64,000 nt of DNA from UHGV virus genome UHGV-0117053. One strand, given 5' to 3'. Made by a program: the position numbers and the translations under genes. The stretch is from a virus. The notes under the pieces are model-generated. The model was not told where the DNA came from. It saw only the letters and a list, made by a program, of their open reading frames with translations, and did not search any database. Positions 18 through 26,285 of the stretch are shown here, in pieces. Within the stretch, counting starts at the first letter, position 1; every line of letters starts with the position of its first letter.

Positions 18-73
18 TTAATCCCTACCTATACCAACGATGTATTTTTAACTAAACAAAGAGGTTGTTTTTC

Positions 74-1749: not shown

Positions 1750-2189
1750 TTGGCTGGGGTGTATGCGTTCTTGCGTTAGCCTTAGCCGATCGCTATTTGC
1801 TAAAACGCAAGGACATCACGCATTTAGAACTTGGTGATGTGGAAATTAAACCGGGTTTCATCCGGGTGCCGTTCAAATACCGGTCTAAATTCCCGTTTTT
1901 GCGCGGCGCAACGGTCAGATATTGGATCCGCGATGTTCAGAAGCCGACGACAGTGATTGAAGGCGAACAACGTTGTTTGACGTCGGCTGAACAGGGCGAA
2001 AACAGTGAATGGTTGTACATACCCACTGAATATATGGGTAAAGGAGAGCGACTGTGGCATTTCAACGTCATGGTTACGCATGGCGACTCGTTCATTAACC
2101 CGTTGTATCGGATTTTCCCTGTTACTCAGCAAATCCGCAGAAGTTACGTAATAAATCTCGCACAGGATGTGTCAGATGACGAAAAATAA
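1746..2189 (+). CDS. lydB: Antiholin LydB
   Basis: 147 aa, translationally coupled to lydA; position and size as recalled for P1 lydB. Confidence 0.7.
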   Translation: MIGWGVCVLALALADRYLLKRKDITHLELGDVEIKPGFIRVPFKYRSKFPFLRGATVRYWIRDVQKPTTVIEGEQRCLTSAEQGENSEWLYIPTEYMGKGERLWHFNVMVTHGDSFINPLYRIFPVTQQIRRSYVINLAQDVSDDEK

Positions 2190-2778
2190 GTATGCAACGG
2201 TCGATTTTGACCAGGTTAATGAAAAGGGGCTGAAATCCCTTATCGCGGCGATCAATAAAACCGGTGTTACGGTAATTGAGGTTGACTCCAGCAACCGCGC
2301 AACAACGAAAGATGGCGTTAAAGTTAAAACCGCAAAGCTGGTTCTTAACGACGGACAAATTCTTGCCATACAGGTAAACGATACTGGCGATATATCGTCT
2401 GTGAGGCTGAATGGAAAAGCTATTCCTAACGCTCAATCGCCGGATATCAAGACGCTTGGTACCGTCATGGGGCAAGCGGCCCGCAAAAACTCCGCAAAAT
2501 TCCAGAAATCACTGATCGCCAAAGCGAAACGTGTTGCCAATCCGGTAGACAAGAAACCGGCAGTAAAATCCAACTTTCAGCGCCTGCAAGAGGCAAAACA
2601 GCGGAATGCTCAGGTGGTTGCCGCTTATAAATCAGCGCAGAACTCGGTGTCTTTCAATCAACAGCAGATCACTGATTTGCGGGCGAAGCTGGATAAGGAG
2701 ACAGGCCGACTCAATAACGAAAAGGCCCGAAATGGCGAACTCAAACGCCGTCTTAAGCAACTGAAAGCAGGAAATTAA
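2176..2778 (+). CDS. hdf: Hdf, first gene of the darA operon
   Basis: about 200 aa; shares the KNSAKFQ-containing segment with the DarA N-terminal region; start 2167 or 2176. Confidence 0.6.
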   Translation: MTKNKYATVDFDQVNEKGLKSLIAAINKTGVTVIEVDSSNRATTKDGVKVKTAKLVLNDGQILAIQVNDTGDISSVRLNGKAIPNAQSPDIKTLGTVMGQAARKNSAKFQKSLIAKAKRVANPVDKKPAVKSNFQRLQEAKQRNAQVVAAYKSAQNSVSFNQQQITDLRAKLDKETGRLNNEKARNGELKRRLKQLKAGN

Positions 2779-2779
2779 C

Positions 2780-4699: not shown

Positions 4700-5061
4700 C
4701 ACTATCAGCTATTGAGTTAATGGATCTCAGCGATAAGTTGGATGCTCTGATGTCCAAAGCGGCTACCGCGAGTGGCATGGAGTTGCTGGATATCAGCGAT
4801 AAAATTGACCAGATCATGCAACAGATGGGGTACGGCGCGTCCGGCGGCAGTAGTGGCGAGGAAAAACAACCTTTGGTACATGATGGTGTGCCAAAACTGG
4901 TTGCTGATTTCCTGGCTGATAAATTCGTCGATCAGAGCACAGATGCATTTATCGGTACCTTGCAGGACTTGAGTCAATATGTTGGCACATACATCGACCT
5001 GGACCAGGTTAAACAGCACACGGCGGCATGGATAGCCGCCAACATTAAAGAGGCAGCATAA
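4696..5061 (+). CDS. ddrA: DdrA (darA operon)
   Basis: 121 aa, ATGA overlap with the darA stop. Confidence 0.6.
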   Translation: MTLSAIELMDLSDKLDALMSKAATASGMELLDISDKIDQIMQQMGYGASGGSSGEEKQPLVHDGVPKLVADFLADKFVDQSTDAFIGTLQDLSQYVGTYIDLDQVKQHTAAWIAANIKEAA

Positions 5062-5073
5062 GGCGTAACAGGG

Positions 5074-8061
5074 ATGAGCTTAAGCGATCAGGTGGTAATG
5101 GCCACCAGCATAGAAACGCTGATCGAGCTGCTAAAGAACCTGCCCGATTATGGGCGGGTTTCGTATGTGGTGACAGCGAAGGGAGACGAGGTAAAAACAG
5201 CGTTTGATATCGTCGATGCCTCAGCTCTTTTGATATCCAATACTCTGGATGGGAAAATTAATCCTGACTATCCCCAGGAACTTCAGCCGCGCGACCGGAC
5301 CCGCGCATCCAGCCTTCTTCAGGTTAACCAGATATCCAAAGATTTGCGGCCTGCTCAGCTTACCGATTCCGGTTTATCCAGCCATGGCGCGCCGATAATT
5401 GGTGAGGACAATGCCGTTGAGTCAGGTAATGGACGGACCATGGGGATCATCAAAGCCTATCAGGACGGCAATGCGGATCGGTATCGTGAGTACCTGATTG
5501 AACATGCGACCGAATTCGGCATACCTCCTGAAAAGGTTGAATCAATGACGGCTCCGGTACTGGTGCGCCGCCGGTTAACTAAGGTTGACCGCGTTCAGTT
5601 TGCCAAGGACTCAAATATTTCTGATCTTCAGGAAATGGCAGCCAGTGAAAAGGCTTTTGTTGATGCCGACAGCATAACACCGGCGATGATGGCGCTGTTT
5701 AATCCGTCAGAAAGCGGAGATCTGCTTAGCCGCAGTAATGACGCGTTTATTCGCGGATTCATGACGCAAGTTGGTGCCACACAGGCGGCTGGCCTTGTAA
5801 CTGAAGATGGGCGACCAACACGGCAACTTGTAGACCGTATACAAAACGCGATCTTTGCCAAGGCATATAAGGATGCGCGCCTGGTAAGGATGGTTGCAGA
5901 AGAACCTGATCCGGATATGCGTAATGTTCTGACGGCGCTTAATGCGGCAGCCAATGATTTTGTCCAGATGCAGGCTTTATCAGGAGAAGCGCACAAGCAG
6001 GCTGTGACAACTATTGTTGATGGCATTGAGACAGCGGATAGCCTCGATAAAAAGGCGCTGGCGGCATTGAAAGATGCGGTAGACCTGGTAAGGCAATCGA
6101 AGGAGTCAGGCCAGCATATTACCGATGTTATTGCTCAGGGGGATATGTTCAGCGAAACGGCCCCGGAAGTGAAAGCACTCGCGTTGTTCATCGTCGCGAA
6201 TAACCGTAGCGCGAAGCGTATGGCCACCGCCTTTAAGTTGATGGCTCAACGTATCAATGATGAGTTACAGCACCAGGGCCAGGCACTGGGGGATATGTTT
6301 GGCGGCGGCGATGTGTCGTTACAGGATATCCTTCGCCAGGTGTCTCAGGAACTGGAAAACGAAGGCATGCAAGGGATATCCGGCGGTCTTTTCGAGTCCG
6401 TTTCCGGCGGTAGTTACAACGGTGTTGCTCCGTATACCAGTTTGCTATTACATCGGGCATCCGGCATCAAAGACATTATTCATCTGATCAGGCTGCTTTC
6501 CCGCACAGATCCCCAGGATGAACAGCTTGTACAAGTGCTTGCGCATTTTGTTCGAATGCCTGTTGCCGACGTGAAAAAATGGTGCCGATTATTCGGTATC
6601 AGCAATTCGTTACTTCGCGGCTTGTTAAATCACGCATCCTCCCTTGGGCGCGATGGCTTTGACGAGATAGCGCAGGCGATAAAAAACGGAGATATGCCAC
6701 CAGCTATTGACTGGTTTTCCATTCGCCCAACCAGGGTGAAAGCATTCCTTAGCGCGGCGCATTCGGCATCACCATTGGCAGAAATGGTTCAGAGGTTGTC
6801 GCTCATATTCACAGACCATACCGCGTTGGGTGATCTGACTCTGGACGAGATGAAAGAAGCCTCCATTCAGTGGGCCGATCAACAAAATGAGGTTAACTCA
6901 GACTTCTTGCCAGCATTCAGGAAGGCCGTTAGTAAAGCGGATGATGCCCGTGGAATTCTGAAGGCATTTAAGGCATTGCAAAGTCGTGTTAATAAACATG
7001 TCGGTGATATCGATGGGGTAACGGCGGAAGGCCGGGATATCCTTAAAGAGCACGGCATAACGCCAGAGTTTATTGATGAGATCAGGACTGATATGCAGCG
7101 TGAGGTCGTATCGTCCCTGCAAATCGTAGCCAGAGCGTTGGCGGATGCTAATCCGAAGAGTGCGGCCATTGTTAACCGGGTTATTGGTGATATTGAAGCA
7201 TCGGAGGGCATGGGGGCGCTGAAACTCTTCCTGTCGCGAGCGTTTAATCCTAACGGCAATATTCTCCCTGGCATTATTGGTGAGGCTAAAAAGTATGTCA
7301 GTGAAGAAGAACTTGAGCAGCTTGACCAACTACTTAAGCGATTCTCATATAACCCGCAGACACGCTGGCAAATGAATCAGCGAAGTATGGGTTCGGTCCA
7401 CGAGAAAGTGTTATCTGCCATGAACAGTGCGATCGCAAACTCATCCGTATCTGAAGAAAAAGCTCTTGAGTGGGCCGACTCTTTTATCACGGAAGAAGTG
7501 GAAGAAGCCCGCGCTGGACAGAATGGTGGGATAGACCTGCGCAAGGAACTTGCTGATATTTATCGCCTGACCGGCGGGAAAATATCGACCTTATCAAAAG
7601 TGGTTCACCACCAGGGAAGGGCATATGCAAATCTAAATGGTGTTGTTGCTGTCAATTTGAACGATGAAAATGCAAGTGCACTGTGGCACGAGCTGGGTCA
7701 TCATCTTGAGTACAGTAACCCTGGTTTGTTAGAGAAAGCCCGGTCATTCCTGAAGGCCAATGTTGAAGGGGATAAGCCATCTTTCGTCAATATCGGTGGG
7801 CGTGGCAAGCCTGAATGGTGCTTCAGATCTCGATTGAGTAATATTTATATGGCGAAGGTATACCCGCCAGCCTCAGTAAGTAACACCGGGAAAATTCGGC
7901 AGAAATCACCGACTATTTCCAAAACGTCAGCAACGGAAGTATTCTCTATGGCTCTTCAGTTGTATCATGACAAAGAGGCCGCTGCCGCATCACTGATGAA
8001 TGGTGACGGATTGCTGGAACTGTTATTAGGTGTGGCAAAGGAGCTAAATAATGCAGATTAA
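5074..8061 (+). CDS. ddrB: DdrB (darA operon, large virion protein)
   Basis: 995 aa ORF following ddrA on the same strand. Confidence 0.65.
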   Translation: MSLSDQVVMATSIETLIELLKNLPDYGRVSYVVTAKGDEVKTAFDIVDASALLISNTLDGKINPDYPQELQPRDRTRASSLLQVNQISKDLRPAQLTDSGLSSHGAPIIGEDNAVESGNGRTMGIIKAYQDGNADRYREYLIEHATEFGIPPEKVESMTAPVLVRRRLTKVDRVQFAKDSNISDLQEMAASEKAFVDADSITPAMMALFNPSESGDLLSRSNDAFIRGFMTQVGATQAAGLVTEDGRPTRQLVDRIQNAIFAKAYKDARLVRMVAEEPDPDMRNVLTALNAAANDFVQMQALSGEAHKQAVTTIVDGIETADSLDKKALAALKDAVDLVRQSKESGQHITDVIAQGDMFSETAPEVKALALFIVANNRSAKRMATAFKLMAQRINDELQHQGQALGDMFGGGDVSLQDILRQVSQELENEGMQGISGGLFESVSGGSYNGVAPYTSLLLHRASGIKDIIHLIRLLSRTDPQDEQLVQVLAHFVRMPVADVKKWCRLFGISNSLLRGLLNHASSLGRDGFDEIAQAIKNGDMPPAIDWFSIRPTRVKAFLSAAHSASPLAEMVQRLSLIFTDHTALGDLTLDEMKEASIQWADQQNEVNSDFLPAFRKAVSKADDARGILKAFKALQSRVNKHVGDIDGVTAEGRDILKEHGITPEFIDEIRTDMQREVVSSLQIVARALADANPKSAAIVNRVIGDIEASEGMGALKLFLSRAFNPNGNILPGIIGEAKKYVSEEELEQLDQLLKRFSYNPQTRWQMNQRSMGSVHEKVLSAMNSAIANSSVSEEKALEWADSFITEEVEEARAGQNGGIDLRKELADIYRLTGGKISTLSKVVHHQGRAYANLNGVVAVNLNDENASALWHELGHHLEYSNPGLLEKARSFLKANVEGDKPSFVNIGGRGKPEWCFRSRLSNIYMAKVYPPASVSNTGKIRQKSPTISKTSATEVFSMALQLYHDKEAAAASLMNGDGLLELLLGVAKELNNAD

Positions 8062-8363: not shown

Positions 8364-8390
8364 ATCCCGCCAATCGGCGGGATTTTTTTT
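8364..8390. terminator. Rho-independent terminator between convergent operons
   Basis: ATCCCGCC-AATC-GGCGGGAT perfect stem followed by T8. Confidence 0.7.
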
Positions 8391-9171
8391 AATCGCTTTC
8401 CACTTCTTCCGTGGTGTTTTCTTGCAGTTCTGTTAATGCAGCACGACATAGGTTCCGGGCATTGGCTATAGCCACACTTTTGACTTCATCCGTCATCGTG
8501 CAGGTAATGTACTGATCGAGTTCTTCAGCGCGGATGATGCTTTTGCCAATCAGAAACTGTATTTGCCAGAGCAGATCGGCATCCATAATCAGAATTTCTG
8601 CCGGGCCTTCAGGGCCAGCCGGGAAGGAAACATAAGACTGTTTGCCCAGGCCGACAACTCGACAACTTGCTTCAAGAATTGCGCGCTTGAGGTCTGACTT
8701 TATAACGGAAACAGGTTGATTTTCACCAGTGATTACGCCGTTGACATGGAAAGGCATGTAGCTTGAAATACGCTCCACTTTCCACACGCCAGCAAGCGAT
8801 CCTTCATGCAGCACAATGGGGGTAACCGCGAGTTTCATCTCACCATATAGCTGCTGGCAGATAGCTGGATTGCTGAATACATCTAAAGGCTCACATTCAA
8901 ACAGCGGCGCAATCTGCATGAGGTCCATCATGGTCATCCCTGGGGTACGAGCAGTAATGAATCTGCGCATACCAGTATCCATTGCGCTCCAGATTGCTAC
9001 ACCATGCTTTTTGCTCACTTCTTCAGTAAAGCCAAGGTGGCACATGATGGTTTTTTCGATAGCCAGATCAGAGATCGAAACCTTTTCGCCAGGCACACCA
9101 TCATTATTGATGGTCACTTCGACACTCTGACCATTACGCAGGCGGTATTGAATTGCTTTAGTATTTTCCAC
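8389..9171 (-). CDS. Hypothetical protein (GTG start), coupled to the upstream DUF2829 gene
   Basis: 260 aa; GTG start at 9171 preceded by GGAG; 7 nt after the stop of the upstream gene. Confidence 0.6.
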   Translation of the reverse strand: MENTKAIQYRLRNGQSVEVTINNDGVPGEKVSISDLAIEKTIMCHLGFTEEVSKKHGVAIWSAMDTGMRRFITARTPGMTMMDLMQIAPLFECEPLDVFSNPAICQQLYGEMKLAVTPIVLHEGSLAGVWKVERISSYMPFHVNGVITGENQPVSVIKSDLKRAILEASCRVVGLGKQSYVSFPAGPEGPAEILIMDADLLWQIQFLIGKSIIRAEELDQYITCTMTDEVKSVAIANARNLCRAALTELQENTTEEVESD

Positions 9172-9177
9172 GTTAAA

Positions 9178-9855
9178 TCACTCCACTACAAACCAGTCAC
9201 ATGCCAGTAAGTCGCCTACAGAAGGAACCCACGGAACAACTACACCTTGTGCATTTTTTAAGGCGAAATAAGCACCATACGGAACGAGGTCGCCGGGGAA
9301 ATATCCCTTAATGGCTTCCATTCGTGCCGGGTACTGTCCTTCAGGAACCAGCCAGCAGAATTGGTTTTCGCCGTTCCACCCGCGTCGAGCAACTTTCTTG
9401 CCATCCTTCAGCCACATCAGCGCGTCAGAAAAGTCGGCTGCTTCAAGGTCGATTTCTTCTTGTGTGGTAATGATGCCACTGGCAGCAATAGTTACGTCCC
9501 TGGCTGTAATGGATGTCACCCCATTGTGACCTTCAATAATGAGCGATACCCCATTTTCGAAGAAGTCGTTAGTCCGACTAAAGCCTTCTTCAAATGTTTT
9601 TTCTGGTGAATAGGACAGAGAACCGTCCTCATAAGCGACCAGATATCCGCCAATTTCTGGTCGGTGTTTTTGCAAAAACATTTTATCAACATGGACTTTT
9701 ACCCCTTCTGGCTCAACGACTTCGATGTTGCAAAAAAGGACCACATCCATTAGGGCGATAATTTCGATATCTTTGATTTTTGAGGCGCGAACTGTTTTAT
9801 GGCTTTTGTATTTTGGAAGTGCCGTCAAAAGCTCTTTCGTTGTCATGTTATTCAT
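9178..9855 (-). CDS. Two-domain protein with C-terminal DUF2829 (Tad2-like) domain
   Basis: C-terminal LKDGKKVARRGWNGENQF...VVPWVPSVGDLLACDWFVVE matches the DUF2829 signature; ATG at 9855 has GAGGAAAG RBS (track ORF begins at an upstream TTG). Confidence 0.65.
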   Translation of the reverse strand: MNNMTTKELLTALPKYKSHKTVRASKIKDIEIIALMDVVLFCNIEVVEPEGVKVHVDKMFLQKHRPEIGGYLVAYEDGSLSYSPEKTFEEGFSRTNDFFENGVSLIIEGHNGVTSITARDVTIAASGIITTQEEIDLEAADFSDALMWLKDGKKVARRGWNGENQFCWLVPEGQYPARMEAIKGYFPGDLVPYGAYFALKNAQGVVVPWVPSVGDLLACDWFVVE

Positions 9856-10052
9856 AGTCTTTCCTCTGCTTAAAACCTGATGTATTGCGCCTTCAGGTGG
9901 GTCAGGAATGTTTTCCCACCAGCGAAAGCAATATCTCGGGGTGTTCTTTTCGTGAAAAGCGCGTGCCATTGCCAACTTTGGCGTTTGTTTGCGAGTTCGT
10001 GCTTTTGTCGGCGTCTGGACTACCGCTTTTCTTTCAGTCGTTTTTTACACAT

Positions 10053-14356: not shown

Positions 14357-17300
14357 ATGAACAAGCTATCTATGGGGGTGTTTCGCTGTTCAAGTGTCAG
14401 CGAAATATTGAAATACATTAGGGCAATAACATCTCACCGAGCGCCGATTAAATACGGCGTGGAAAAGGTGGAAGGCAAAAGCTATGACCGACTGCGCCGG
14501 GAGGCGAATCAGAAGGCGATAGATTTGCTTAATTCGCTGGTGGACGGCGCGACACTGACAGATGAACAGCGCCAGATCCTGGCTGGGTACACCGGTGAAG
14601 GCGGCATTGGCGGGTCCGTCTCCGAATATTACACACCAAAGCCGATCGCTGAAGGTGTCTGGGAGATCATGAAGCTCTACGGCGCGGACGTAGGTAACAC
14701 TCTGGAACCATCGGCGGGCACCGGCGTTTTTAATGAGACAAAACCGGTTGGTACGGTGATGACTGCGACTGAGATCAGCAGTGTTTCCGGTCGTATAAAC
14801 CAGCTGTTACACCCGGAAGACAGCGTACAGATTTCCCCGTTCGAACAGCTGGCTGTAAGCACGCCTAACGATTCATTCGACCATGTTGTGGGTAACGTTC
14901 CGTTCGGTGGTCGTGATAACACACGCAACATCGATAAGCCTTACGCAGAAGAAACGGACATGGGTTCTTACTTCATGCTCCGCATGCTGGACAAGATAAA
15001 GCCAGGCGGATTCATGTGCGTGATTGTGCCGCCGTCCATTGTTTCAGGTTCAAACATGAAGCGGTTACGCCTGCGCCTATCACGGAAAGCTGAATTTCTT
15101 GGTGCTCACCGCTTGCCTACCGGTACTTTTGACGCAAACGGGACCAGTACAGTCGTTGATGTGGTGCTGATGCGCAAACATCCGGCAGAGATGGCTGAGA
15201 AAATCCCCCTGGTGGATGAAAGCACTCTTGAATCGGCAAATGTGCTTTGGCCAACGTTTATTTCTGGCAAGTGGTTTGAAAAGGACGGTCGCCGGTTTGT
15301 TCATGGCACCCAGGAGAAGGGATTCCAGGGGCGTATTGAGGTTCGTGCCGACGGGCAGATTGATAACCAGGCTCTTAAAGCGAAGCTGATTCATCGTTTC
15401 GAAAGTCGTATCGACTGGTCTTTGCTCAATATGGCTGAACCGTCACCGACCGCAGACGTTGTTGATGAAGGGGAAATGCGCCTGATTAATGGCGTATGGC
15501 AAAAATATGCTGGTGGTCGCTGGATTGAATCTGATGCAGGGAAGGAGCTGAAGATTGATGTTGCCAGTTATGGCGCGGACAGCTGGGAGGCTCTTCAGCG
15601 TAACCTGACTACAACAGAAGGCCGTCTCGGTATGACATTTACCCAGATGGCAAATGTCCGCGATAAGTACACCACATCAATCAGCGACGATATGGTGCAG
15701 CTGGTGGACTGGATTAACAGCCAGCCTGAAAAATACCGTGAACGCTTGTATCGCGGGGCGATGATTGGCCGGATGTTAATTGAATATCAGGACATGAAGG
15801 CCGCCGGGCATAGTGCTGAACAAATCGAACAGCAGCGCCTTTCTCTGGTATCCCGTTTGCAGGCAGAGATTGACCGTTTTGGTAACCCCGGTCGCGGTCC
15901 GATAGCGAAATTATCGGGGAGCGGTGCGCGCGCCTGGTTTGCTTTCCGTGGTGCAATTAAGCTGGATGGCACTATTTCTGACGAGCTGACAGGAAAACTG
16001 GTTACGCATGATTCCAGCGCCAGTTATGACTCCACCAGCTATCAGGACACCCTGCGTTATCTCTACAGTGATCTCACTCGCGATCCAATCCAGCTCGATG
16101 ATTTCCGCCTTGCGTTTACCGGCGAACTGCCAGCCAGTGATGACGAGTTGCTTAATTTATTGGCCAGCACCCCTGGCATTGCGGTTTCACCGTATGGCGG
16201 GATTGTTCCGTTCGCCCGCGCCACCAGCGGCGACATTAACGAGATAGTGGCACCAAAACAGGAATTCCTTGCCACACTCCCCGACGGTCCAGTAAAGAAC
16301 AACGTCCTTAATCAGCTGGCAGCGATCGAAGAGAAGCGCATCAAGACGCCAGCAGAGAATATCCGCTTTAAGCTCAATAGCCGTTGGTTCGACCGTTCCG
16401 TCATTCTGGAATTTTTGCAGGAAAACGGCTATCCGGATCTTCGCTATGTGCAGTCAGTGCAGCTGGAAGGCGACGAAATGGTTTCTGACACCTATCACGG
16501 TGGTGATGGTCTGTTCGTCGGGCACAGATACGGTGTCGTCCAGCGCAAGGATAAAGAAACAGGCGAGATCCGCTACGAGTGGGATCGTAAATCAGGTGAA
16601 AACGCGACCGGGTTCCCGGCACAGCTGGAAAAGTATCTCAATGGTGCGCGTATCGGTGGCAAAGATAGCGCGACGGCGAACGGCTACCGCGAGCAGATGG
16701 CACTGCTTGAGGACCAGTTCAATAAGTGGATCAAGACGCACGATCGCTACGATGAACTGGTTGCCAAATACAACGATGTGTTCAATAGCAATATCCCGTA
16801 TGAACACTCTGGCGATCCGCTTGGGTTGAAGGGATTAAGCGGTAAGCGCCAGCCATTTGATTACCAGAATAGCGAGGTGCGCCGACTGTCCGAAGATGGG
16901 CGCGGCATCCTGGGCTTCGGCACCGGGCTGGGTAAAACCACGACCGCGCTGGCGCTTGAGGCGTTCAACTATGAGAACGGTCGCTCCACCCGTACTGCGT
17001 ATGTAGTGCCTAAATCAGTGCTGGAAAACTGGTATTACGAAGCAAAAGAATTCCTGAGTGAAGAGGCATTCAGTAACTACCTGTTCGTCGGTCTTGATGT
17101 GCTGATGGATGGCGATCAGATTCGCCAGGTGCCGGTGCTCGATGAGAACGGTAAACCTGTTCTTGGTACTGATGGCACTCCAGTTATGCGCGATGCCCTA
17201 AAACTGGCAGATGAAGCCACTATCACGGCGCGGATGAACGCGATCCCGCACTCAAATTACCGTGCAGTCGTGTTTACCAAAGAACAATACGCCCGCATTC

Positions 17301-20300
17301 CGCTACGTGATGACACCGTAGATGAGCATGCACAGGATATGCTTTATGACTTCGTTGCCGCCGGGCGCGTAGCCAGCGCAATGGACTCCGACTCCCACCG
17401 CAAAGAGGCCGCGCGTCGCCGGGTATTGTCGGAGTATTCAGATACCGGCACCGAAAAAGCAGAGAAGTATCCGTACTTTGAGGATATGGGCTTCGATAGT
17501 GTGATCGCTGACGAAGGTCACAACTACCGCAATAGCTATAAAAATGGTCGCGAAGCGTCACAACTGGCCTATCTGCCCACCAGCGCGGTGGCGCAATCGG
17601 CGCGGGATATGGCAATTAAAAACGCGTACCTGATGAAAAAGAATGGTGGGCGCGGACCGGTTCTCCTGACTGCAACGCCAGTCGTTAACACCCCGATCGA
17701 TGCATACAACATGCTTTCTCATGTGCTGCCGAAGGAATACTGGCAGAACATGGGGATCTACGGTCCTGATGACTTCGTTAAATTCTTCGGCAAGACCAGG
17801 CTGGAAACGGTACAGAAAATTAGCGGTGAAGTTGAAGAAAAAATGGCGCTGGTGGGCTTTGAAAACCTTGATGCGCTGCGCGGTATATTCCATCGCTGGG
17901 TAACGCTTAAAACGGCGGAAGACGTTAAGGATACCGTGGAGATCCCGGAGCTGGACGAACACCAGCAGGATGCACCACTTACTGAAGAACAACTGGCGGC
18001 GTATGAAGAATTGCGTCAGCAGGCGGAAGCGGCGGCCAAAGCCAACAATGGCGTAACGACCTCGGTCAATGAAGACGGCGTGATTGAGCACGAGAAAGCC
18101 CGTCCGATCTTCTCAATAATCAGGGATATGGACCGCGTATGTACTGACATGGACCTGTACTATCGCAGGATCACCTATCGTTTCCTGCCGGAGTACGCCG
18201 ATGCGGTGCAGCAGCTGGCGGACAGTTTGCCTAAACAAGCCACCAGCGAAGACGACGACAGTGATGATTCGATCACGCAGCAATCGCAATACTCCCTGAT
18301 AGATAAGGGCGAGTTTATTCAGTTGCAGGTTCCGGAAGCGTTCGAGCAGGAAGTGAATAAGCGCCTGGCCAGGTTTGGCATTGACGAACAGACCGTAACT
18401 CACCCCGTTACGCCCAAATACGCGAAGCTGATTGCCACGCTGAAGGAGTTTTTCCCGGAAGGTAAGCAAATCATCTTCACCGATGAAAAAACGCAACACC
18501 AGAAGCTCAAGCGCATTATCTGCAATGCTCTTAACCTTGAACCTTCAAAGGTGGGGATCCTGAATGCTCAGACGGTTGCCGAGGCAGGTAAAACCGGTAA
18601 GAAACTGAAAGCGGTTAAACCGCCGAAAGAGCTACCGGATGAACCAACAGATGCACAGATAGCGAAATACAACGAGCAAATGGCTCTGTATGACGCCTAT
18701 ATCGCGCAGCAAAATGAAATGTCGTTGGGCGGTCTGGAAAAGATTGCAGCCGACTTCCAGGAGGGCCGGACTCCGATCATCATCTGCAACAAAAAGGCAG
18801 AGGTGGGTATCAACCTGCATCGAGGAACGACGGATATCCACCACCTGACGTTGCCGTGGACACCAGCCAGTATCGCACAACGTAACGGTCGCGGTGCACG
18901 AGTTGGCTCCAACCGTGCAAGCGTTCGCGTTCACTACTACTGCGGCAAGGGGTCTTTCGATGAATACCGACTGAAGACGCTGAAGCGTAAAGCAGGCTGG
19001 ATCTCCGATATCCTCCGTTCAGATAAGTCAGAAATGGAGAACGCCGACGCCAATGACATGATCGAAATGCAGATGTATACCGCGAAGGATGACGGCGAAC
19101 GTCTGGCAATGATGCAGGTTCAAATGGATAAGGCGAAAGCTGCGAAACGCGCTCGCCAGAAAGAACAGGCTACTATCGACCTTCAGAACTACATCAAGGC
19201 GCAGCACGCAGCTGGTGAGGATGTGGAGGTACTTACCGCTGAATTGGAGCGAAGCAAAGCGGAACTTGAAAAGACCACCGCCGACGTCGCCAAATTCAAA
19301 CAGGCGGTAATGGCCAAAGCAGCGGATAACGCAGACTGGAAAGCCCGCTGGGGTAGCGTCCATCACACAGACCGTATGTTGTTAGCACAGTATCGCGCGT
19401 CGTTGAAAAGCGCCATTCAGCGCAAGGCTAATATCTCTCAGGCCATCTCCCGCTATGAGAAATTATTGAACCGTACTCAGAAGGCCGCGACGGATATCAA
19501 ACGCCTGCGCCCGCTGGTGGAGGATGCAATAAATAAAGGCATTCTGGATGTTGATCCTGATCTGGTTAACCATGCGAATGAGTTCCTTGTTATCGGCGAT
19601 CGCTCATGGCGTGTAGGCCAATACTATGATTGTGCCGGTGATATCGTTCGCATTAAGTCGCTGGACTTCGACAGCCAGCGCGCAGACGTGGAGATCATCT
19701 TTACCTTCAAAGGCACCAAATCGGGTAACTGGGATGTGAAGACGCTGGATAAACAGGTTGATGTAACTCCCGATGAAGATGCTGTTATGCAGAAAATCAG
19801 TGGTGGCGTCTCCATCGCCGGGATTAACGACATCATTTCCTGTGACGATTTCTACCGTTTCCAGCAGCGCGGTATGATCAAAATCACTGACTCATACGGC
19901 GTTCAGACTACAGAGTCAGGCTATAGCATTGATTTTGTTGGTTCCTATACGGCCCCACTGAAGCATGCGGTTTACCCGGATCGCCGTGACGGCGCGCTGA
20001 AGTCGTCAATTGCAAAATGGGTGCTTGGTATGATGTCGGAAGGGAATAACCGCCAGATCCGTTCGGCAGAAACATTCCTGGTTGAATTGTTTGGCTCCAA
20101 TTATGGCGATGTAATCGCGTCATACGGAGATACGCTATCCCCTGAAGCAATTCAGGAGAAAATAGCGGATGCGATCGCAAAAATGCCGGAGAAAACAAGC
20201 CAGGGGGCTACTCGTAACGGGGATTCTGAACTTGAGGTCACCAATGCCATTTTCGGTACCCATGAGTTCCGGGCGTCAGATTATGAGATCACCACAGCAC

Positions 20301-21124
20301 AGTTTGGCACCATTGGCATTTACAGCAATAAAGCCGAGATCAAGCAGGCAATGGACTCAGCAAGCGCGCGCATCGCAGCAGAACGGGAAGCCAATCTGAA
20401 TCATGCAGTCGCCGCACTGACTCAATCGTGGGTAACAGCAATCAGGGAGGCCGCTACCACAGGGAAAATCACACCTGCAATTGCGGATGTCGTAAACGAC
20501 GGCTCTAAATTTATGGATGCCTATCAAATGGATGCGGTGCAGTTGCCATCAGCCTATGGCCAACTCAGCTATCGCATGACCTACAACCTGGTATCAATGT
20601 TTTCCGACCTTGCCATCCTTGGGCTGGTGGATCTTAACGAAGTTACGCCGGAATTGCTCAGCATGCGTAAGAATCATGTGGAGATATTGCAGAGAATTAA
20701 CACGGTTCTTGCCGGGCGCACCGATGAAGAGAAACAGGCCGACGCTGATCGGATAAACCTGGCCCTTGGCAACATCACGGAGGAAGAAATTGCCGCCAGA
20801 AACGAGAAACAAGAAGAGTTATCATCAATACAGGGTGATGCCACCAGCATAGCTCAGTCTCTTGGTCTGAATTATCGCGTATCCACCGCCGACCTGAAGA
20901 TGATGTACGCACCAAAATTCGCCGCTGGCGAGGTATTTGGGCTTCAGGAAGCCTCAGGCATGAAAGGCGTTCTTTTCCGTGCGAAAGACGCAATCAAGGC
21001 GAAATTCGGCGCTCGCTGGCTGCCAGCGAAGGCGAAGAACAGCGATTTCCCGGGTAACTGGTGGATTATCGAGACAAAACACAACGTGGCGGACGTTCTG
21101 GCCGTCATCCAACAATACGCATAA
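14357..21124 (+). CDS. darB: DarB antirestriction protein (N6-adenine methyltransferase plus DExH helicase domains)
   Basis: 2255 aa; GNVPFGG methyltransferase-like motif, GTGLGKT Walker A and DEGH box. Confidence 0.9.
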   Translation: MNKLSMGVFRCSSVSEILKYIRAITSHRAPIKYGVEKVEGKSYDRLRREANQKAIDLLNSLVDGATLTDEQRQILAGYTGEGGIGGSVSEYYTPKPIAEGVWEIMKLYGADVGNTLEPSAGTGVFNETKPVGTVMTATEISSVSGRINQLLHPEDSVQISPFEQLAVSTPNDSFDHVVGNVPFGGRDNTRNIDKPYAEETDMGSYFMLRMLDKIKPGGFMCVIVPPSIVSGSNMKRLRLRLSRKAEFLGAHRLPTGTFDANGTSTVVDVVLMRKHPAEMAEKIPLVDESTLESANVLWPTFISGKWFEKDGRRFVHGTQEKGFQGRIEVRADGQIDNQALKAKLIHRFESRIDWSLLNMAEPSPTADVVDEGEMRLINGVWQKYAGGRWIESDAGKELKIDVASYGADSWEALQRNLTTTEGRLGMTFTQMANVRDKYTTSISDDMVQLVDWINSQPEKYRERLYRGAMIGRMLIEYQDMKAAGHSAEQIEQQRLSLVSRLQAEIDRFGNPGRGPIAKLSGSGARAWFAFRGAIKLDGTISDELTGKLVTHDSSASYDSTSYQDTLRYLYSDLTRDPIQLDDFRLAFTGELPASDDELLNLLASTPGIAVSPYGGIVPFARATSGDINEIVAPKQEFLATLPDGPVKNNVLNQLAAIEEKRIKTPAENIRFKLNSRWFDRSVILEFLQENGYPDLRYVQSVQLEGDEMVSDTYHGGDGLFVGHRYGVVQRKDKETGEIRYEWDRKSGENATGFPAQLEKYLNGARIGGKDSATANGYREQMALLEDQFNKWIKTHDRYDELVAKYNDVFNSNIPYEHSGDPLGLKGLSGKRQPFDYQNSEVRRLSEDGRGILGFGTGLGKTTTALALEAFNYENGRSTRTAYVVPKSVLENWYYEAKEFLSEEAFSNYLFVGLDVLMDGDQIRQVPVLDENGKPVLGTDGTPVMRDALKLADEATITARMNAIPHSNYRAVVFTKEQYARIPLRDDTVDEHAQDMLYDFVAAGRVASAMDSDSHRKEAARRRVLSEYSDTGTEKAEKYPYFEDMGFDSVIADEGHNYRNSYKNGREASQLAYLPTSAVAQSARDMAIKNAYLMKKNGGRGPVLLTATPVVNTPIDAYNMLSHVLPKEYWQNMGIYGPDDFVKFFGKTRLETVQKISGEVEEKMALVGFENLDALRGIFHRWVTLKTAEDVKDTVEIPELDEHQQDAPLTEEQLAAYEELRQQAEAAAKANNGVTTSVNEDGVIEHEKARPIFSIIRDMDRVCTDMDLYYRRITYRFLPEYADAVQQLADSLPKQATSEDDDSDDSITQQSQYSLIDKGEFIQLQVPEAFEQEVNKRLARFGIDEQTVTHPVTPKYAKLIATLKEFFPEGKQIIFTDEKTQHQKLKRIICNALNLEPSKVGILNAQTVAEAGKTGKKLKAVKPPKELPDEPTDAQIAKYNEQMALYDAYIAQQNEMSLGGLEKIAADFQEGRTPIIICNKKAEVGINLHRGTTDIHHLTLPWTPASIAQRNGRGARVGSNRASVRVHYYCGKGSFDEYRLKTLKRKAGWISDILRSDKSEMENADANDMIEMQMYTAKDDGERLAMMQVQMDKAKAAKRARQKEQATIDLQNYIKAQHAAGEDVEVLTAELERSKAELEKTTADVAKFKQAVMAKAADNADWKARWGSVHHTDRMLLAQYRASLKSAIQRKANISQAISRYEKLLNRTQKAATDIKRLRPLVEDAINKGILDVDPDLVNHANEFLVIGDRSWRVGQYYDCAGDIVRIKSLDFDSQRADVEIIFTFKGTKSGNWDVKTLDKQVDVTPDEDAVMQKISGGVSIAGINDIISCDDFYRFQQRGMIKITDSYGVQTTESGYSIDFVGSYTAPLKHAVYPDRRDGALKSSIAKWVLGMMSEGNNRQIRSAETFLVELFGSNYGDVIASYGDTLSPEAIQEKIADAIAKMPEKTSQGATRNGDSELEVTNAIFGTHEFRASDYEITTAQFGTIGIYSNKAEIKQAMDSASARIAAEREANLNHAVAALTQSWVTAIREAATTGKITPAIADVVNDGSKFMDAYQMDAVQLPSAYGQLSYRMTYNLVSMFSDLAILGLVDLNEVTPELLSMRKNHVEILQRINTVLAGRTDEEKQADADRINLALGNITEEEIAARNEKQEELSSIQGDATSIAQSLGLNYRVSTADLKMMYAPKFAAGEVFGLQEASGMKGVLFRAKDAIKAKFGARWLPAKAKNSDFPGNWWIIETKHNVADVLAVIQQYA

Positions 21125-21157: not shown

Positions 21158-21598
21158 ATGGCCACACTATCTGATACAATAAAACCGAATAAAACATATC
21201 TTGAGGCGGTACTCCGTACAGCGTTGTTAGGAAAGACAGAAGACGAATACGTTGATTTCTTCCTGTCAGGGCTACGCGGGCGATTACTGAAAAATCCCCG
21301 CCTGTACCGCAGCTATGGTCCATACTGGCCGGAAATTAAAAAATTATTACTGGAGCGCGGTTATGGTAATTTCGGTCGTCTCGTTGACCGTGACGTTCGC
21401 AAAATTTACCGTTATGACCGCCCGGCGCTGACGCTCATAGCTGCGACGCTCTACAGCCAGGAGCGTTTTGATAATGGTCAGATATACTCAGCCTGGCATT
21501 TACTGCCAGTGCCTGAAGAGGTTGACGACCAGGACTATGAGTTTGAGTCTTACGATTTGGAAGTTGAAGCCTTAGCACAGGCTGGAGAGAAAACTTGA
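21158..21598 (+). CDS. ulx: Ulx
   Basis: 146 aa between darB and lxc, stop overlaps the lxc start. Confidence 0.65.
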   Translation: MATLSDTIKPNKTYLEAVLRTALLGKTEDEYVDFFLSGLRGRLLKNPRLYRSYGPYWPEIKKLLLERGYGNFGRLVDRDVRKIYRYDRPALTLIAATLYSQERFDNGQIYSAWHLLPVPEEVDDQDYEFESYDLEVEALAQAGEKT

Positions 21599-21843
21599 AA
21601 AAGCGATACTACACAGTAAAGCATGGGACGCTACGAGCATTACAAGAGTTTGCTGATAAGCATAACGTTGAGGTGCGCAGGGAAGGGGGAAGTAAAGCTC
21701 TGCGCATGTACCGTCCGGACGGGAAATGGCGTACGGTCGTCGATTTCAAAACTAACAGCGTTCCCCAGGGCGTCCGTGACCGGGCATTCGAAGAATGGGA
21801 GCAGATCATCATAGATAACGCATTGCTCCTGAATGCTGATTAA
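21595..21843 (+). CDS. lxc: Lxc (Bof), C1 co-repressor
   Basis: 82 aa, size and position as recalled for P1 lxc/bof. Confidence 0.8.
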   Translation: MKKRYYTVKHGTLRALQEFADKHNVEVRREGGSKALRMYRPDGKWRTVVDFKTNSVPQGVRDRAFEEWEQIIIDNALLLNAD

Positions 21844-21846
21844 TTT

Positions 21847-21879
21847 ATCGGGCAGTTTTATCTGCCCGATAAATTTTTA
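21847..21879. terminator. Inverted-repeat terminator between lxc and the SIR2-like gene
   Basis: ATCGGGCAG-TTTTAT-CTGCCCGAT followed by AAATTTTTA. Confidence 0.6.
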
Positions 21880-21889
21880 TCGACCACAA

Positions 21890-23197
21890 TTACACTATAT
21901 TCTTAACTATAAGGTTGGCGTCCTTCAAGGTGCCTAATGTTTCAATGTGGTTTTTTATCATTAATCTATTTGAGGCAATTATTGCAGGCCATCGTGTTTC
22001 CCAAGCTCTGTAAGCATGCCAAGAAACTCCCCAATTCCTTTCTTTACTCATATGACCCATCGAGTATTCAACTGCGTCTAAATATGTTTTTTCATACTTA
22101 GTATTGCTAACCTCTATGATGCTTCCAAAATATATAAGCCATTTTGCCAACTGTTCATATTGCTCCCACGCTCCGTTATTCCTTGTTAACTTTCTCTTTT
22201 TTTCTATTATCCTTTCGAAAAGAGAAACGACTTTATCATCATTCCAATCTAAACCTTCCGATATAATTGATGATATAATTTGATAAAATGAATCCTCTAA
22301 TTTAAGATATTCATTTTTATAAGTGTAAGCCCCCGAAACAACTTTTCTGATATTTTCGCGCGCTCTTTCAATGATGTCTTTAATGAGAGAAATCTTATAA
22401 CTTAATCGACTAAAGAAACAATCTATTTCTGTATTGTCAATTACCCTTATACCAAAGCAATAGAAGTAATAATCCTTCATATCTTGACTTACTTTGTTGC
22501 GAGATATCAAAAAGATATTAGAGCACAGGGCATTATTTTTCGAAAATTTTTTATAGTCATTTATAATTGCTTTAAGATTTGTGTCGCTTAAAGAATACCC
22601 TAATATCGCAACTGTATTTTCATGCAGCATCGTACTAAGTTTTCGTGAAAAATAAGTATCGGAATTTATAAATCTGAAGTAATCATCTGAAGTGACAATC
22701 ATATTTTTTGGCGAATCAATAGAACCATGAACATGATATATTTTCACCTTGGATGGATACTTTGGAATTGGCAGACCGGGCGTGATAGACTGCACACTTT
22801 CATCTCCAACCAAGCATTCAGCCAACTTGTCATAATTTGTTGTAATGACACGGAATGAGTTTTTTTGGAAAAAATCTTTTATATTTGATATGTCTTCTCC
22901 AAGTTGAATTGGAGATATGATGTCAACAATTTCATCATAAATCGACTTACCCTCAATATTGAGCTTCAAAGATAGTATTTGTGCGGCTTCTTCAAGACTC
23001 AGTGCTGGTGGTTTATCATCAGGGAATAACGTGTCTTCCAACTTTTTGGCATTGTGAACTTTGCTGCAAACTTTTTTTAATAGTTCCTTCCACGTTGGAG
23101 CTTCACCGTTCGAGACTGCCTTTGAAAAGCCAGTCCCGGTAAATAGACAAAGCCTGCTTGTAGCGGCAGCGTATGCTAACTCAACATATTCGCTCAT
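21890..23197 (-). CDS. SIR2-like (sirtuin-fold NADase-type) protein, candidate antiphage effector
   Basis: 435 aa; motifs LFTGTGFS, ITTNYDKLAE, YHVHGS, ILGYSLSD in SIR2 order; AT-rich codon usage unlike flanking backbone; GGAG RBS. Confidence 0.85.
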   Translation of the reverse strand: MSEYVELAYAAATSRLCLFTGTGFSKAVSNGEAPTWKELLKKVCSKVHNAKKLEDTLFPDDKPPALSLEEAAQILSLKLNIEGKSIYDEIVDIISPIQLGEDISNIKDFFQKNSFRVITTNYDKLAECLVGDESVQSITPGLPIPKYPSKVKIYHVHGSIDSPKNMIVTSDDYFRFINSDTYFSRKLSTMLHENTVAILGYSLSDTNLKAIINDYKKFSKNNALCSNIFLISRNKVSQDMKDYYFYCFGIRVIDNTEIDCFFSRLSYKISLIKDIIERARENIRKVVSGAYTYKNEYLKLEDSFYQIISSIISEGLDWNDDKVVSLFERIIEKKRKLTRNNGAWEQYEQLAKWLIYFGSIIEVSNTKYEKTYLDAVEYSMGHMSKERNWGVSWHAYRAWETRWPAIIASNRLMIKNHIETLGTLKDANLIVKNIV

Positions 23198-23253
23198 TAC
23201 TTACTCCATTTACTTATAGTTCTATGGAGAAGTATACCCTAATGCATTGACGT

Positions 23254-23895
23254 TTATAGATAATTTCCTTTTCCAGTTAACTCCCCTTTAGGCACCCGTT
23301 TTTGTGCCAGCGTTTGGGTTCCGCGAATTATGTTAATCAGAGGGCTTAGTAACGATGATTCCTGGCGGGCATCAACTTCTCCTGCCATTGCCCTAATGTA
23401 GTCGGCGCTTGCAACGTTGTTATATTCCGTTGCGAAGCAGCATAACAACGTCAGAACGTGCTCTGTCGTTATTTCGCTCCAGTTGATGTTGAAAAATTCA
23501 TCGCCTTTTTTATCGTGTTCGGAATCGAAGATGCTTTGGTGGAGGATGTATTTGCCGGATTCCTTGCGCGGTAACTTGATTGCTTTCTGGCGTTCCAGCT
23601 CCTTATAAATCTGCATTGCCTCATTTAGTACCGGCCTGCCGTTCATGAAGGGATCGCGCAACCTTACACGCTGGCCAACTCGACCAGTAATAAAGCTGTT
23701 TTCCTCTTCCACCAGCACGATAAAACCCTTTTCCTCTTTTTCTCGCAATTCGCGCAGCAGCTGGAGTTCCATATCGCGGCGGCGTTCAGGGTAGCTGGTC
23801 CGCTCAGCCATTATCAGCTCGTTATTGATCCATGCAGCAGTCATTGATGCCGGTTTGCCGACGCTCATCGAAACAACGCATATTTTCTTATCCAT
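23254..23895 (-). CDS. Hypothetical protein (213 aa), possibly the P1 mat equivalent
   Basis: Backbone-like GC; ATG at 23895 preceded by GGGGG; sits between ref and the SIR2 gene on the same strand. Confidence 0.6.
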   Translation of the reverse strand: MDKKICVVSMSVGKPASMTAAWINNELIMAERTSYPERRRDMELQLLRELREKEEKGFIVLVEEENSFITGRVGQRVRLRDPFMNGRPVLNEAMQIYKELERQKAIKLPRKESGKYILHQSIFDSEHDKKGDEFFNINWSEITTEHVLTLLCCFATEYNNVASADYIRAMAGEVDARQESSLLSPLINIIRGTQTLAQKRVPKGELTGKGNYL

Positions 23896-24084
23896 AGCGC
23901 CCCCTACAAAAAAGAAAAGCCACCAGCGGCGGCTTAGCAATACAACTGAAGGTAGCGCCCGGTACTCAGACTGTGCCGTCCATGGAATATTTGAAAAGGG
24001 ATCCATCCGTACCGGGCATGTGATGATTCTGACTGAAGTCACTTGTCAGTTGTCAATTATTTCAGATTAAAAATAATATATTTA

Positions 24085-24645
24085 TTAGTGCATGATGTTT
24101 GCCATCTCATAGGCGTCAGCCAGCAACTCCATCTCTAACTTGTTCAGCAAGGTGAATTCTTTCTTGCCTCCAACCACACCATCGGCATGAACAGGGACCA
24201 GCCAGGGGTATTTTTCTCTTACTTCAGCCGGTGCTGCATGCTGGTGGTGCCATCTACAAAGGGGCAATTGCTTTTTGTGACAACCCGGCGCGGTACGACC
24301 GGAGATATGGTGCAGAGATACCTCTTCAGATATTACTCCATGCATGTAGCAGGCAATGCAGGGGAGAGCGCCAAGAGCATTGGCGATGCGCCGTTCCTCC
24401 GCCGTTGGTGTTCTCCCCTTCAAGCCACGAGATTTTATTTTTACCGCGCTTTTCCGCGTTTTGCTGGCTGGTGGGCGCTCTTTCTGTTTAGCGATACGGC
24501 GGTCGATAGAATCCCGCATTTTCTGATATTGCGATTCTCGCCAAGCGGGGTCAGCCAACTTTTCCCGTTGCCGAGCGATCGCTCGTTCTCTGGCTGCCTT
24601 CTGCCACTCGCGGCGCTGTTCAAGTTTTTGTTCGATTGTTTTCAT
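24085..24645 (-). CDS. ref: Ref, HNH-family recombination enhancement endonuclease
   Basis: 186 aa from MKTIEQKLEQ; HNH-like HHISGRT...CRWHH motifs. Confidence 0.9.
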   Translation of the reverse strand: MKTIEQKLEQRREWQKAARERAIARQREKLADPAWRESQYQKMRDSIDRRIAKQKERPPASKTRKSAVKIKSRGLKGRTPTAEERRIANALGALPCIACYMHGVISEEVSLHHISGRTAPGCHKKQLPLCRWHHQHAAPAEVREKYPWLVPVHADGVVGGKKEFTLLNKLEMELLADAYEMANIMH

Positions 24646-25253: not shown

Positions 25254-26285
25254 CTAATCGCCATCTTCCAGCAGGCGCACCATTGCCCCCGTTTCACTAT
25301 CCAGGTTACGGATATAGTTCATGACAATATTTACGTTGGTCCAGCCACCAGCTTGCATGATCTCCGGTATTGAAACTCCGGCGCGGGCCATATCTCGCGC
25401 GGCTCCGACACGGGCACTGTGTCCAGACCAGGCCAGGTATCTCTGACCAGAGTCATCCTTAGCGCCGTAAATCAATCGATGAGTTGCTTCAAAAATCCCT
25501 TCCAGGGCGCGAGTTGATAGCTGGCTGGTGGCAGATGGCGCGGCAACACCATTTTTTCTGACACGGCAAAACAAGTAGTTATTCGGATCATCAGCCACAC
25601 CAGAGACAGAAATCCATCGCTCGACCAGTTTAGTTACCCCCAGGCTAAGTGCCTTCTCTACACCTGCGGTGCTAACCAGCGTTTTCGTTCTGCCAATATG
25701 GATTAACATTCTCCCACCGTCAGTACGTGAGATATCTTTAACCCTGATCCTGGCAATTTCGGCTATACGTAATAGGGTGTTATAAGCAATCCCCAGAAAT
25801 GCCAGATTACGTATATCCTGGCAGCGATCGCTATTTTCCATGAGTGAACGAACCTGGTCGAAATCAGTGCGTTCGAACGCCAGTGCCTGTTTTGCACGTT
25901 CACCGGCATCAACGTTTTCTTTTCGGATCCGTCGCATGACCAGTGAAACAGCATTACTGTCACTTGGTCGTGGCAGCCCGGACCGACGATGAAGCATGTT
26001 TAGCTGGCCCAAATGTTGCTGGATAGTTTTTACTGCCAGACCGCGCGCCTGAAGATATAGAAGATAATCGCGAACATCTTCAGGTTCTGCGGGAAACCAT
26101 TTCCGGTTATTCAACTTGCACCATGCCGCCCACGATCGGCAAACGGACAGAAGCATTTTCCAGGTATGCTCAGAAAACGCCTGGCGATCCCTGAACATGT
26201 CCATCAGGTTCTTGCGAACCTCATCACTCGTTGCATCGACCGGTAATGCAGGCAAATTTTGGTGTACGGTCAGTAAATTGGACAT
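25254..26285 (-). CDS. cre: Cre site-specific tyrosine recombinase
   Basis: 343 aa beginning MSNLLTVHQNLPALPVDATSDEVRKNLMDMFRDRQAFSEH and ending MVRLLEDGD. Confidence 0.98.
   Translation of the reverse strand: MSNLLTVHQNLPALPVDATSDEVRKNLMDMFRDRQAFSEHTWKMLLSVCRSWAAWCKLNNRKWFPAEPEDVRDYLLYLQARGLAVKTIQQHLGQLNMLHRRSGLPRPSDSNAVSLVMRRIRKENVDAGERAKQALAFERTDFDQVRSLMENSDRCQDIRNLAFLGIAYNTLLRIAEIARIRVKDISRTDGGRMLIHIGRTKTLVSTAGVEKALSLGVTKLVERWISVSGVADDPNNYLFCRVRKNGVAAPSATSQLSTRALEGIFEATHRLIYGAKDDSGQRYLAWSGHSARVGAARDMARAGVSIPEIMQAGGWTNVNIVMNYIRNLDSETGAMVRLLEDGD

Follow-up and report, generated by a model that had tools for sequence, protein, structure and literature searches.

What is a single AT-rich gene doing between two core genes of a phage-plasmid? 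The question is raised by a 64,000-nt stretch of the virus genome UHGV-0117053 (hereafter the window, to whose coordinates all positions refer). The window represents a P1-like phage-plasmid, and the gene order around the open reading frame (ORF) in question, which encodes a SIR2-family protein of 435 amino acids and lies between lxc and mat, matches that of P1 except for this ORF. The whole insert is best explained as a horizontally acquired single-gene cassette in a mat–lxc hotspot of P1-like phage-plasmids, and the protein is probably a self-sufficient defence or exclusion factor that depletes nicotinamide adenine dinucleotide (NAD+) and thereby kills infected cells.

A single-gene block between two convergent core genes

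The block and its borders comprise the following elements:

21595–21843, plus strand: lxc (modulator of C1), the backbone gene at the left edge of the slot
21844–21873, no strand assigned: hairpin carried by the cargo, with 12-bp arms and a 6-nt loop, directly after the lxc stop codon
21890–23197, minus strand: SIR2-family gene, 435 aa, stop codon within the coordinates
21893–22432, minus strand: alpha-solenoid (HEAT-like) domain, codons 256–435, family-specific
22433–23197, minus strand: SIR2_2 Rossmann domain, codons 1–255
23198–23253, minus strand: leader of 56 nt from the mat stop codon to the SIR2 ATG, containing the Shine-Dalgarno sequence
23254–23895, minus strand: mat (maturation control; PHROG 1837), the backbone gene at the right edge of the slot

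Positions 21844–23253 thus form a 1.41-kb block that extends exactly from the lxc stop codon to the mat stop codon, with one ORF in between. With 34.9% guanine and cytosine (GC), the segment 21847–23253 is the lowest-GC stretch of such length in the 64 kb and lies about 4.8 standard deviations (sd) below the mean of the window (48.7%, sd 2.9%, in 1407-bp windows). A preliminary description made from the sequence had reported an AT-rich block with one 435-aa ORF convergent with lxc, and had placed the end of lxc at 21843; both statements hold. The gene on the other side, which it had listed as a ref-proximal gene of 213 aa, is mat itself, a core gene of P1. The start of mat in the P1 annotation is an upstream ATG that corresponds to window position 24006. 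In identical plasmids and in P1, RCS47, and SJ46, lxc is annotated either as "modulator protein" or as lxc.

The inverted repeat that had been noted on the lxc side folds on the plus strand with -22.9 kcal/mol (z = -7.2 versus shuffles) and is followed by UUUUU in the direction of lxc. On the minus strand, the corresponding values are -21.7 and z -6.3, and the U-tract is weak. Its sequence predicts that the hairpin is an intrinsic terminator for lxc and also the 3' end structure of the SIR2 transcript. The SIR2 ORF starts with an ATG, 8 nt downstream of a GGAG Shine-Dalgarno sequence.

A SIR2 domain fused to a family-specific alpha-solenoid

All SIR2 motifs that had been quoted in the preliminary description are present in the protein, namely LFTGTGFS (18–25), ITTNYDKLAE (118–127), HVHGS (155–159), and ILGYSLSD (198–205). 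In 83 homologues, G21-T-G23-F-S, T119-T-N121-Y-D123, and H155-V-H157-G-S are invariant, which means that the catalytic Asn and His and the glycine-rich NAD loop of the superfamily (G21/G23, N121, D123, and H157) are conserved throughout. The Pfam profile SIR2_2 (PF13289) matches residues 117–252 with 84.4 bits, far above its cut-off of 24.5 (E=1.1e-23). Among the sequences of the PDB, the protein is matched best by the SIR2 domain of DSR2 (E=4.5e-10), with ITTNYD aligned to ITTNYD and H157 aligned to the catalytic H171; the H171A chains of DSR2 show an Ala at the column aligned to H157.

An AlphaFold2 model based on the 83 homologues (mean predicted local distance difference test score, pLDDT, 85.7) shows a Rossmann-type SIR2 domain at residues 1–255, followed by an all-helical region at 258–432, in agreement with the helical C-terminal part that had been noted before. 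In structure, the protein comes closest to the defence NADases KomC, ThsA, DSR2, and Avs5, and Foldseek ranks DSR2 first (E=1.7e-12). As the template modelling (TM) score normalised to the query is equal for SIR2-only and full-length DSR2 chains, the C-terminal domains do not superpose. The profile matches of PADLOC (PDC-S25, ThsA, LmuA, Dsr2, and Dsr1) and NCBIfam (Dsr1 and Dsr2) all end where the SIR2 domain ends and remain far below the family cut-offs.

The C-terminal domain has no match in Pfam, NCBIfam, PADLOC, or PDB profile searches. Modelled alone, it reaches a pLDDT of 92 and matches only generic HEAT/ARM-like solenoids (Z ≤9.2). A phmmer search of 1.84 billion representatives with this domain retrieved 75 proteins, all of which have the same architecture or are fragments thereof; the ten most divergent of them all carry an N-terminal SIR2_2 domain, and no fusion of the C-terminal domain to another effector was found among these representatives. 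Its invariant residues form a Trp-rich set (W344, Q346, Y347, W353, W393, W399, W403, N410, and R411). We presume that the solenoid serves as a sensor domain, an oligomerisation domain, or both.

The mat–lxc slot is a hotspot for defence cargo

In RCS47, which shares the backbone, the stop codons of lxc and mat are separated by a 39-bp spacer that has its own hairpin. As 1410 bp replace this spacer in the window, the cargo starts and ends exactly at the stops of the two convergent core genes. P1 itself has the order mat-res-mod-lxc (EcoP1I) in this slot; that P1 carries mat-res-mod between ref and lxc had been stated in the preliminary description, and the P1 record confirms it. SJ46 holds a RelA/SpoT gene here, as a single-gene cargo in the same orientation as the SIR2 gene. 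This gene encodes CapRelSJ46, an experimentally validated fused toxin-antitoxin defence system with a phage capsid protein as its trigger (PMC9712102). As the same place is occupied by the classical restriction system EcoP1I in P1 and by a validated system of abortive infection in SJ46, the mat–lxc slot is a hotspot for defence cargo, and the presence of CapRelSJ46 strengthens the view that the SIR2 gene also serves defence. The two proteins themselves differ: CapRelSJ46 is a RelA/SpoT-type tRNA pyrophosphokinase that is unrelated to SIR2, and its upstream spacer is 112 nt long.

The backbone is common to about 710 PLSDB plasmids, and we surveyed the slot contents in an evenly spaced sample of 60 of them (hits H54–H113). 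The slot was found to be empty or to contain the SIR2 gene, RelA/SpoT, YaaC, PIN, DUF2971, EAL plus a helix-turn-helix (HTH) gene, GNAT, or IS1/transposase, and in some plasmids a larger insert split the match, as res/mod do in P1. The interval is therefore variable across P1-like genomes, with alternative cargos or an empty site between the same conserved convergent genes in sister elements, and the SIR2 gene, the occupant in about 18% of the P1-like plasmids, is not a core P1 gene. The hairpin on the lxc side differs with each SIR2 allele and with each other cargo. Most of the other cargos are uncharacterised, and with EcoP1I and CapRelSJ46 already known from the hotspot, YaaC, PIN, DUF2971, EAL plus HTH, and GNAT make up a shortlist of further candidates for defence functions.

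Distribution, alleles, and selection

A search of PLSDB retrieved SIR2 DNA from 127 records (40 at ≥99% identity, 2 at 95–99%, 83 at 80–90%, and 2 at 60–80%). Nearly all of these are P1-like plasmids of E. coli; they come from many hosts and countries, and the gene is annotated as "SIR2 family protein" in them. Among the complete E. coli genomes, 64 of 5426 carry the gene, with a plasmid location in 66 of 67 places, and a full-length PHROG family of unknown function exists (phrog_7567). The preliminary description had regarded the gene as uncharacterised. This is right insofar as our literature search found no published characterisation of the family, with the SIR2 mentions in Vassallo 2022, Rousset 2022, a language-model preprint, and an S. 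thermophilus paper concerning other systems; given the numbers above, however, it is not a rare gene. Homologous proteins of about 434 aa with 42–62% identity occur across Gamma-, Beta-, and Alphaproteobacteria, with a few in other phyla.

At least three alleles occupy the slot of P1-like plasmids; their proteins are 100%, 86.7%, and 59.5% identical to that of the window. For the two closest alleles, the ratio of nonsynonymous to synonymous substitution rates (dN/dS) is 0.12, and the alleles are thus under purifying selection. Divergence is faster in the C-terminal domain than in the SIR2 domain (77% versus 93% identity, and 51% versus 65%). By comparison, the 56-nt leader shows a single mismatch across the three alleles (23198–23253; L013 2604–2659; L014 2591–2646). 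A near-identical leader combined with different 3' hairpins suggests that alleles are replaced by recombination at the leader, with a breakpoint at the 5' end of the gene, that an expression signal in it is strongly constrained, or both.

P1-like records deposited as phages carried the SIR2 cargo in 0 of 23 cases, as compared to about 18% of the plasmid-state records, these records not being independent of each other. This may be due to chance; it could also be that SIR2-bearing elements are isolated less often as free phage.

Expression signals

The mat promoter region of the window is nearly identical to positions 2600–2720 of P1, from whose feature table the following elements were transferred:

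24077–24094, minus strand: Omat (C1 operator)
24051–24056, minus strand: -35 element TTGACA of Pmat
24036–24044 and 24026–24031, minus strand: -22 box and -10 element of the late promoter LPmat

A consensus scan revealed neither a sigma-70 promoter nor a terminator between mat and the SIR2 gene. The SIR2 gene may therefore be the distal member of a mat transcript, and its transcription would then possibly result from read-through from the C1- and Lpa-controlled mat promoters. It may also have a weak promoter of its own, which a consensus scan could miss. A hairpin over the Shine-Dalgarno sequence in the leader folds no better than shuffled sequence (z -0.48). The chromosomal homologues have unrelated, AT-rich upstream regions without mat.

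Proposed function

We consider it most likely, with a probability of roughly 0.6, that the protein is a single-protein NAD+-depleting module of abortive infection or exclusion. In the resting state, the SIR2-type NAD+ glycohydrolase would be inactive. The family-specific C-terminal alpha-solenoid would sense the infection, most likely through a protein from a competing phage, and this detection would drive the assembly of an oligomer or filament of SIR2 domains, by analogy with DSR2, ThsA, KomC, and Avs5. NAD+ would then be hydrolysed through N121, D123, and H157, the infected cell would stop supporting phage growth, and the clonal population that carries the plasmid-prophage would thereby be protected. 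Such a mechanism would resemble CapRelSJ46 in its logic, as that system also combines a toxic enzyme with a small fused sensor domain, and a phage protein triggers it directly (PMC9712102).

Several observations speak against this function. In the literature that we searched, no member of the family has been reported to have NADase activity or to protect against phages. As the solenoid has only generic structural matches, nothing points to a particular trigger. Among 50,697 deposited phage genomes, no family member was detected by DNA search or by tblastn at 1e-10, and many chromosomal homologues are located beside housekeeping genes in a raw tally. Finally, as no promoter of its own was found, expression from Pmat and LPmat only would mean that the gene is repressed in lysogens and expressed late in the P1 lytic cycle, a timing that would be odd for a defence that protects the lysogen.

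This timing leads to the alternative that survives best, although we regard it as unlikely: the gene could be co-transcribed with mat and act during lytic growth or establishment, as a phage-timed weapon for the shutdown of host metabolism or for the exclusion of co-infecting phages or plasmids, or it could be a plasmid addiction module. In its favour, the SIR2 gene is co-oriented with mat and begins 56 nt downstream of it with no terminator or consensus promoter between them, Omat, Pmat, and LPmat are conserved with P1, and a leader that is virtually unchanged across divergent alleles suggests a constrained expression signal. However, the unrelated upstream regions of the chromosomal homologues, which lack mat, show that the family does not depend on being wired to mat, and CapRelSJ46, at the same position and in the same orientation, defends from its own upstream region (PMC9712102). 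In addition, a weak promoter could have escaped the consensus scan, and NAD+ depletion in the late phase of the carrier itself would harm the carrier.

Solitary organisation and relation to known SIR2 systems

Another explanation is that the protein is an orphaned effector of a multi-gene system (an LmuA-SIR2, a variant of ThsA, or a SIR2-HerA or Kongming component) that needs a host partner in trans or is inactive alone. We think that this is quite improbable for the following reasons. No res, mod, insertion sequence (IS), HerA, TIR, or Argonaute gene adjoins the SIR2 gene, as had been stated in the preliminary description, and SLOG and SMC genes are likewise missing from the adjoining positions. 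When 449 flanking ORFs from 59 species were clustered, no family occurred in more than 4 loci, and those few were from close relatives. As there is no conserved neighbour across the 59 species, we conclude that the SIR2 protein works alone. The gene mat accompanies all of the different cargos and is retained where the slot is empty, so that it does not qualify as a dedicated partner. Moreover, the full-length architecture is under purifying selection in solitary settings, including the three alleles of P1-like plasmids, the C-terminal domain occurs in this architecture only, and all matches to effectors of multi-gene systems end at the end of the SIR2 domain.

The same picture emerged when the known systems were considered individually, and the earlier statement that the protein is not a canonical ThsA, DSR1, DSR2, or SIR2-HerA protein was substantiated, with the domain profile matches being confined to the SIR2 region. 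DSR2 of Bacillus subtilis (PDB 8wy8, 8k98, and others), the best match in the PDB and in Foldseek, is also a single-protein system in which all-helical repeats follow a SIR2 NADase at the N-terminus, and it shares the GxG, TTNYD, and VHG motifs, H171 of DSR2 being equivalent to H157. However, DSR2 has about 1005 aa and a large helical MID/CTD part that binds the phage tail tube, whereas the protein described here has 435 aa with a 180-aa solenoid. Membership in the DSR1/DSR2 families was rejected, as the NCBIfam scores (Dsr1 26.2 bits, Dsr2 22.5 bits) compare to cut-offs of 1400 and cover the SIR2 region only, and as these proteins have about 1000–1270 aa.

ThsA of the Thoeris system differs by its C-terminal SLOG/STALD (or TM) domain, which binds the signal made by ThsB, and by its ThsB/TIR partner, both of which are lacking here. 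The ThsA profiles match positions 108–229 only, the C-terminal part being an alpha-solenoid, and the neighbours are lxc and mat, with no adjacent gene for a TIR-domain ThsB, so that an assignment to ThsA and to Thoeris was rejected. KomC of the Kongming system (PDB 9v0g, 8zsf) is a bare SIR2 protein of 264–278 aa that acts together with KomA/B, whereas an additional C-terminal domain and no partners are found here. SIR2-HerA (Nezha), Kongming, and SPARSA were all rejected, as the slot contains no HerA, KomA/B, or short pAgo-APAZ and as no neighbour recurs in the 59 loci.

LmuA-SIR2 of Lamassu (PADLOC PDLC03856) is similar in size (433 versus 435 aa) and in having an N-terminal SIR2 domain followed by a helical C-terminal region. 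The match (E=5.8e-16) covers residues 13–241, but the C-terminal halves do not match. Membership in Lamassu was rejected, since the LmuA profile covers the N-terminal half only and LmuB (SMC) and LmuC are absent here and not recurrent in the 59 species. The best PADLOC match is the single-gene candidate PDC-S25 (E=1.4e-26), which is itself uncharacterised; the alignment is limited to profile positions 127–289 of 517, corresponding to the SIR2 core, and the profile is about 90 residues longer. An assignment to Avs5 (SIR2-STAND) was rejected as well, since Pfam finds no NTPase domain and the 180-aa C-terminal part is all-helical. Systems of this type, in which a prophage hotspot carries a SIR2 NADase with a fused sensor as its cargo, are well known; what is new is the C-terminal domain together with the compact architecture.

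To a similar degree, it is improbable that the protein is an NAD+-dependent modifier of a specific host or phage target that does not deplete NAD+, be it a deacylase, as the current RefSeq name implies, or a SirTM-like ADP-ribosyltransferase. The classical sirtuin deacylases were rejected as a family, since the protein matches neither their profile (PF02146) nor their Cys4 zinc module, and its sequence contains no CxxC zinc module. That the gene is a decaying or neutral passenger without current function in the P1-like element, a view to which the lack of a demonstrated function and a slot that tolerates being empty or occupied by an IS would lend themselves, is very improbable in view of the intact full-length ORF, the dN/dS of 0.12 between alleles, the invariance of all catalytic residues, and the retention in 127 plasmids of many hosts and countries.

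Returning to the single-protein defence module, a more specific version of it can be proposed tentatively. The protein might be the smallest self-contained immune protein of the DSR type, in which a 255-aa SIR2 NADase is gated by a private 180-aa solenoid whose invariant Trp cluster directly recognises a conserved phage component. In P1-like elements, its expression might be tied to the mat transcript under C1 and Lpa control via the fixed 56-nt leader, in which case the prophage would time the weapon and would have to avoid self-triggering by its own virion proteins, and the three co-circulating alleles, whose C-terminal domains evolve fast, might be specificity variants that are swapped by recombination at the leader. 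If active, the protein would be a one-protein NAD+-depletion defence of 435 aa, less than half the size of DSR1/DSR2, and with a sensor domain that has no known relatives it would be a tractable model for the off/on control of a minimal SIR2 effector. As the gene travels on P1-like phage-plasmids that also carry resistance genes, it would furthermore be a candidate factor behind failures of phage therapy against E. coli from clinical and livestock settings.

Genomic neighbours of the homologues

In E. coli chromosomes, a homologue with 60% identity (L004–L007, 6001–7311) occupies that end of a lambdoid prophage (YfdP, DUF2303, integrase) which lies towards the integrase gene, where it adjoins the response-regulator gene narP and the ccm genes for cytochrome c maturation; morons and defence genes are typically found in such a position. 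The neighbours of the Pseudoalteromonas and Paracidovorax homologues are unrelated, and the 207-aa gene upstream of the Pseudoalteromonas homologue, which we considered as a counterpart of mat, is unrelated to mat. An HD-domain gene is found in the context of the Pantoea homologue. The immediate neighbours are mixed overall; in a raw tally, the genes found besides the housekeeping ones were defence or mobile-element genes, namely type I restriction endonuclease, NERD plus UvrD, PD-T7-1, PD-T7-5, AbiU, AbiD, HamB, GajB, DUF2971, resolvase, and terminase genes. Among 115 immediate neighbours of the homologues in L016–L085, one is ThsB-like (TIR; E=6e-52), and two are DUF2971 genes, DUF2971 being also an alternative cargo of the P1 slot. 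The PADLOC profile PDC-S31 likewise matches two neighbours.

Other features of the window

The gene order beyond the slot and the region with matches to anti-restriction proteins are as follows:

65–646, plus strand, and 2167–8061, plus strand: region from the invertase to DdrB, defined by domain matches
14357–21124, plus strand: darB
21158–21598, plus strand: ulx
25254–26285, minus strand: ref, c8, and cre, beyond mat

The first of these regions encodes a Cin-type invertase (resolvase plus HTH_7), followed by Hdf (DarA_N), DarA (DarA_N plus DarA_C), and DdrB (ddrB-like ParB domain). Together with DarB, the proteins Hdf, DarA, and DdrB constitute the full anti-restriction set of P1.

A 265-aa ORF (9178–9975, minus strand) between ddrB and ssb/lyz, next to a gene at 8389–9171 (minus strand), contains a C-terminal Tad2-like domain (PF11195, formerly DUF2829, Thoeris anti-defence 2-like; E=2e-22). 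This region is intact in the window and in SJ46, where the annotated genes include isaA. Its P1 counterpart aligns in pieces, with IS1 beside isaA, and judging from this alignment, isaA of P1 may be an IS1-disrupted version of the Tad2-like gene.

Three tRNA genes are present on the minus strand at 55464–55539, 57169–57242, and 57245–57320 (Met-CAT, Thr-TGT, and Asn-GTT). In addition, 14 sites that resemble the C1 operator (ATTGCTCTAATAAATTT, ≤3 mismatches) are scattered over the window, as compared to 0.25 expected by chance, and these sites and the tRNA genes fit an intact immunity circuit of the P1 type.

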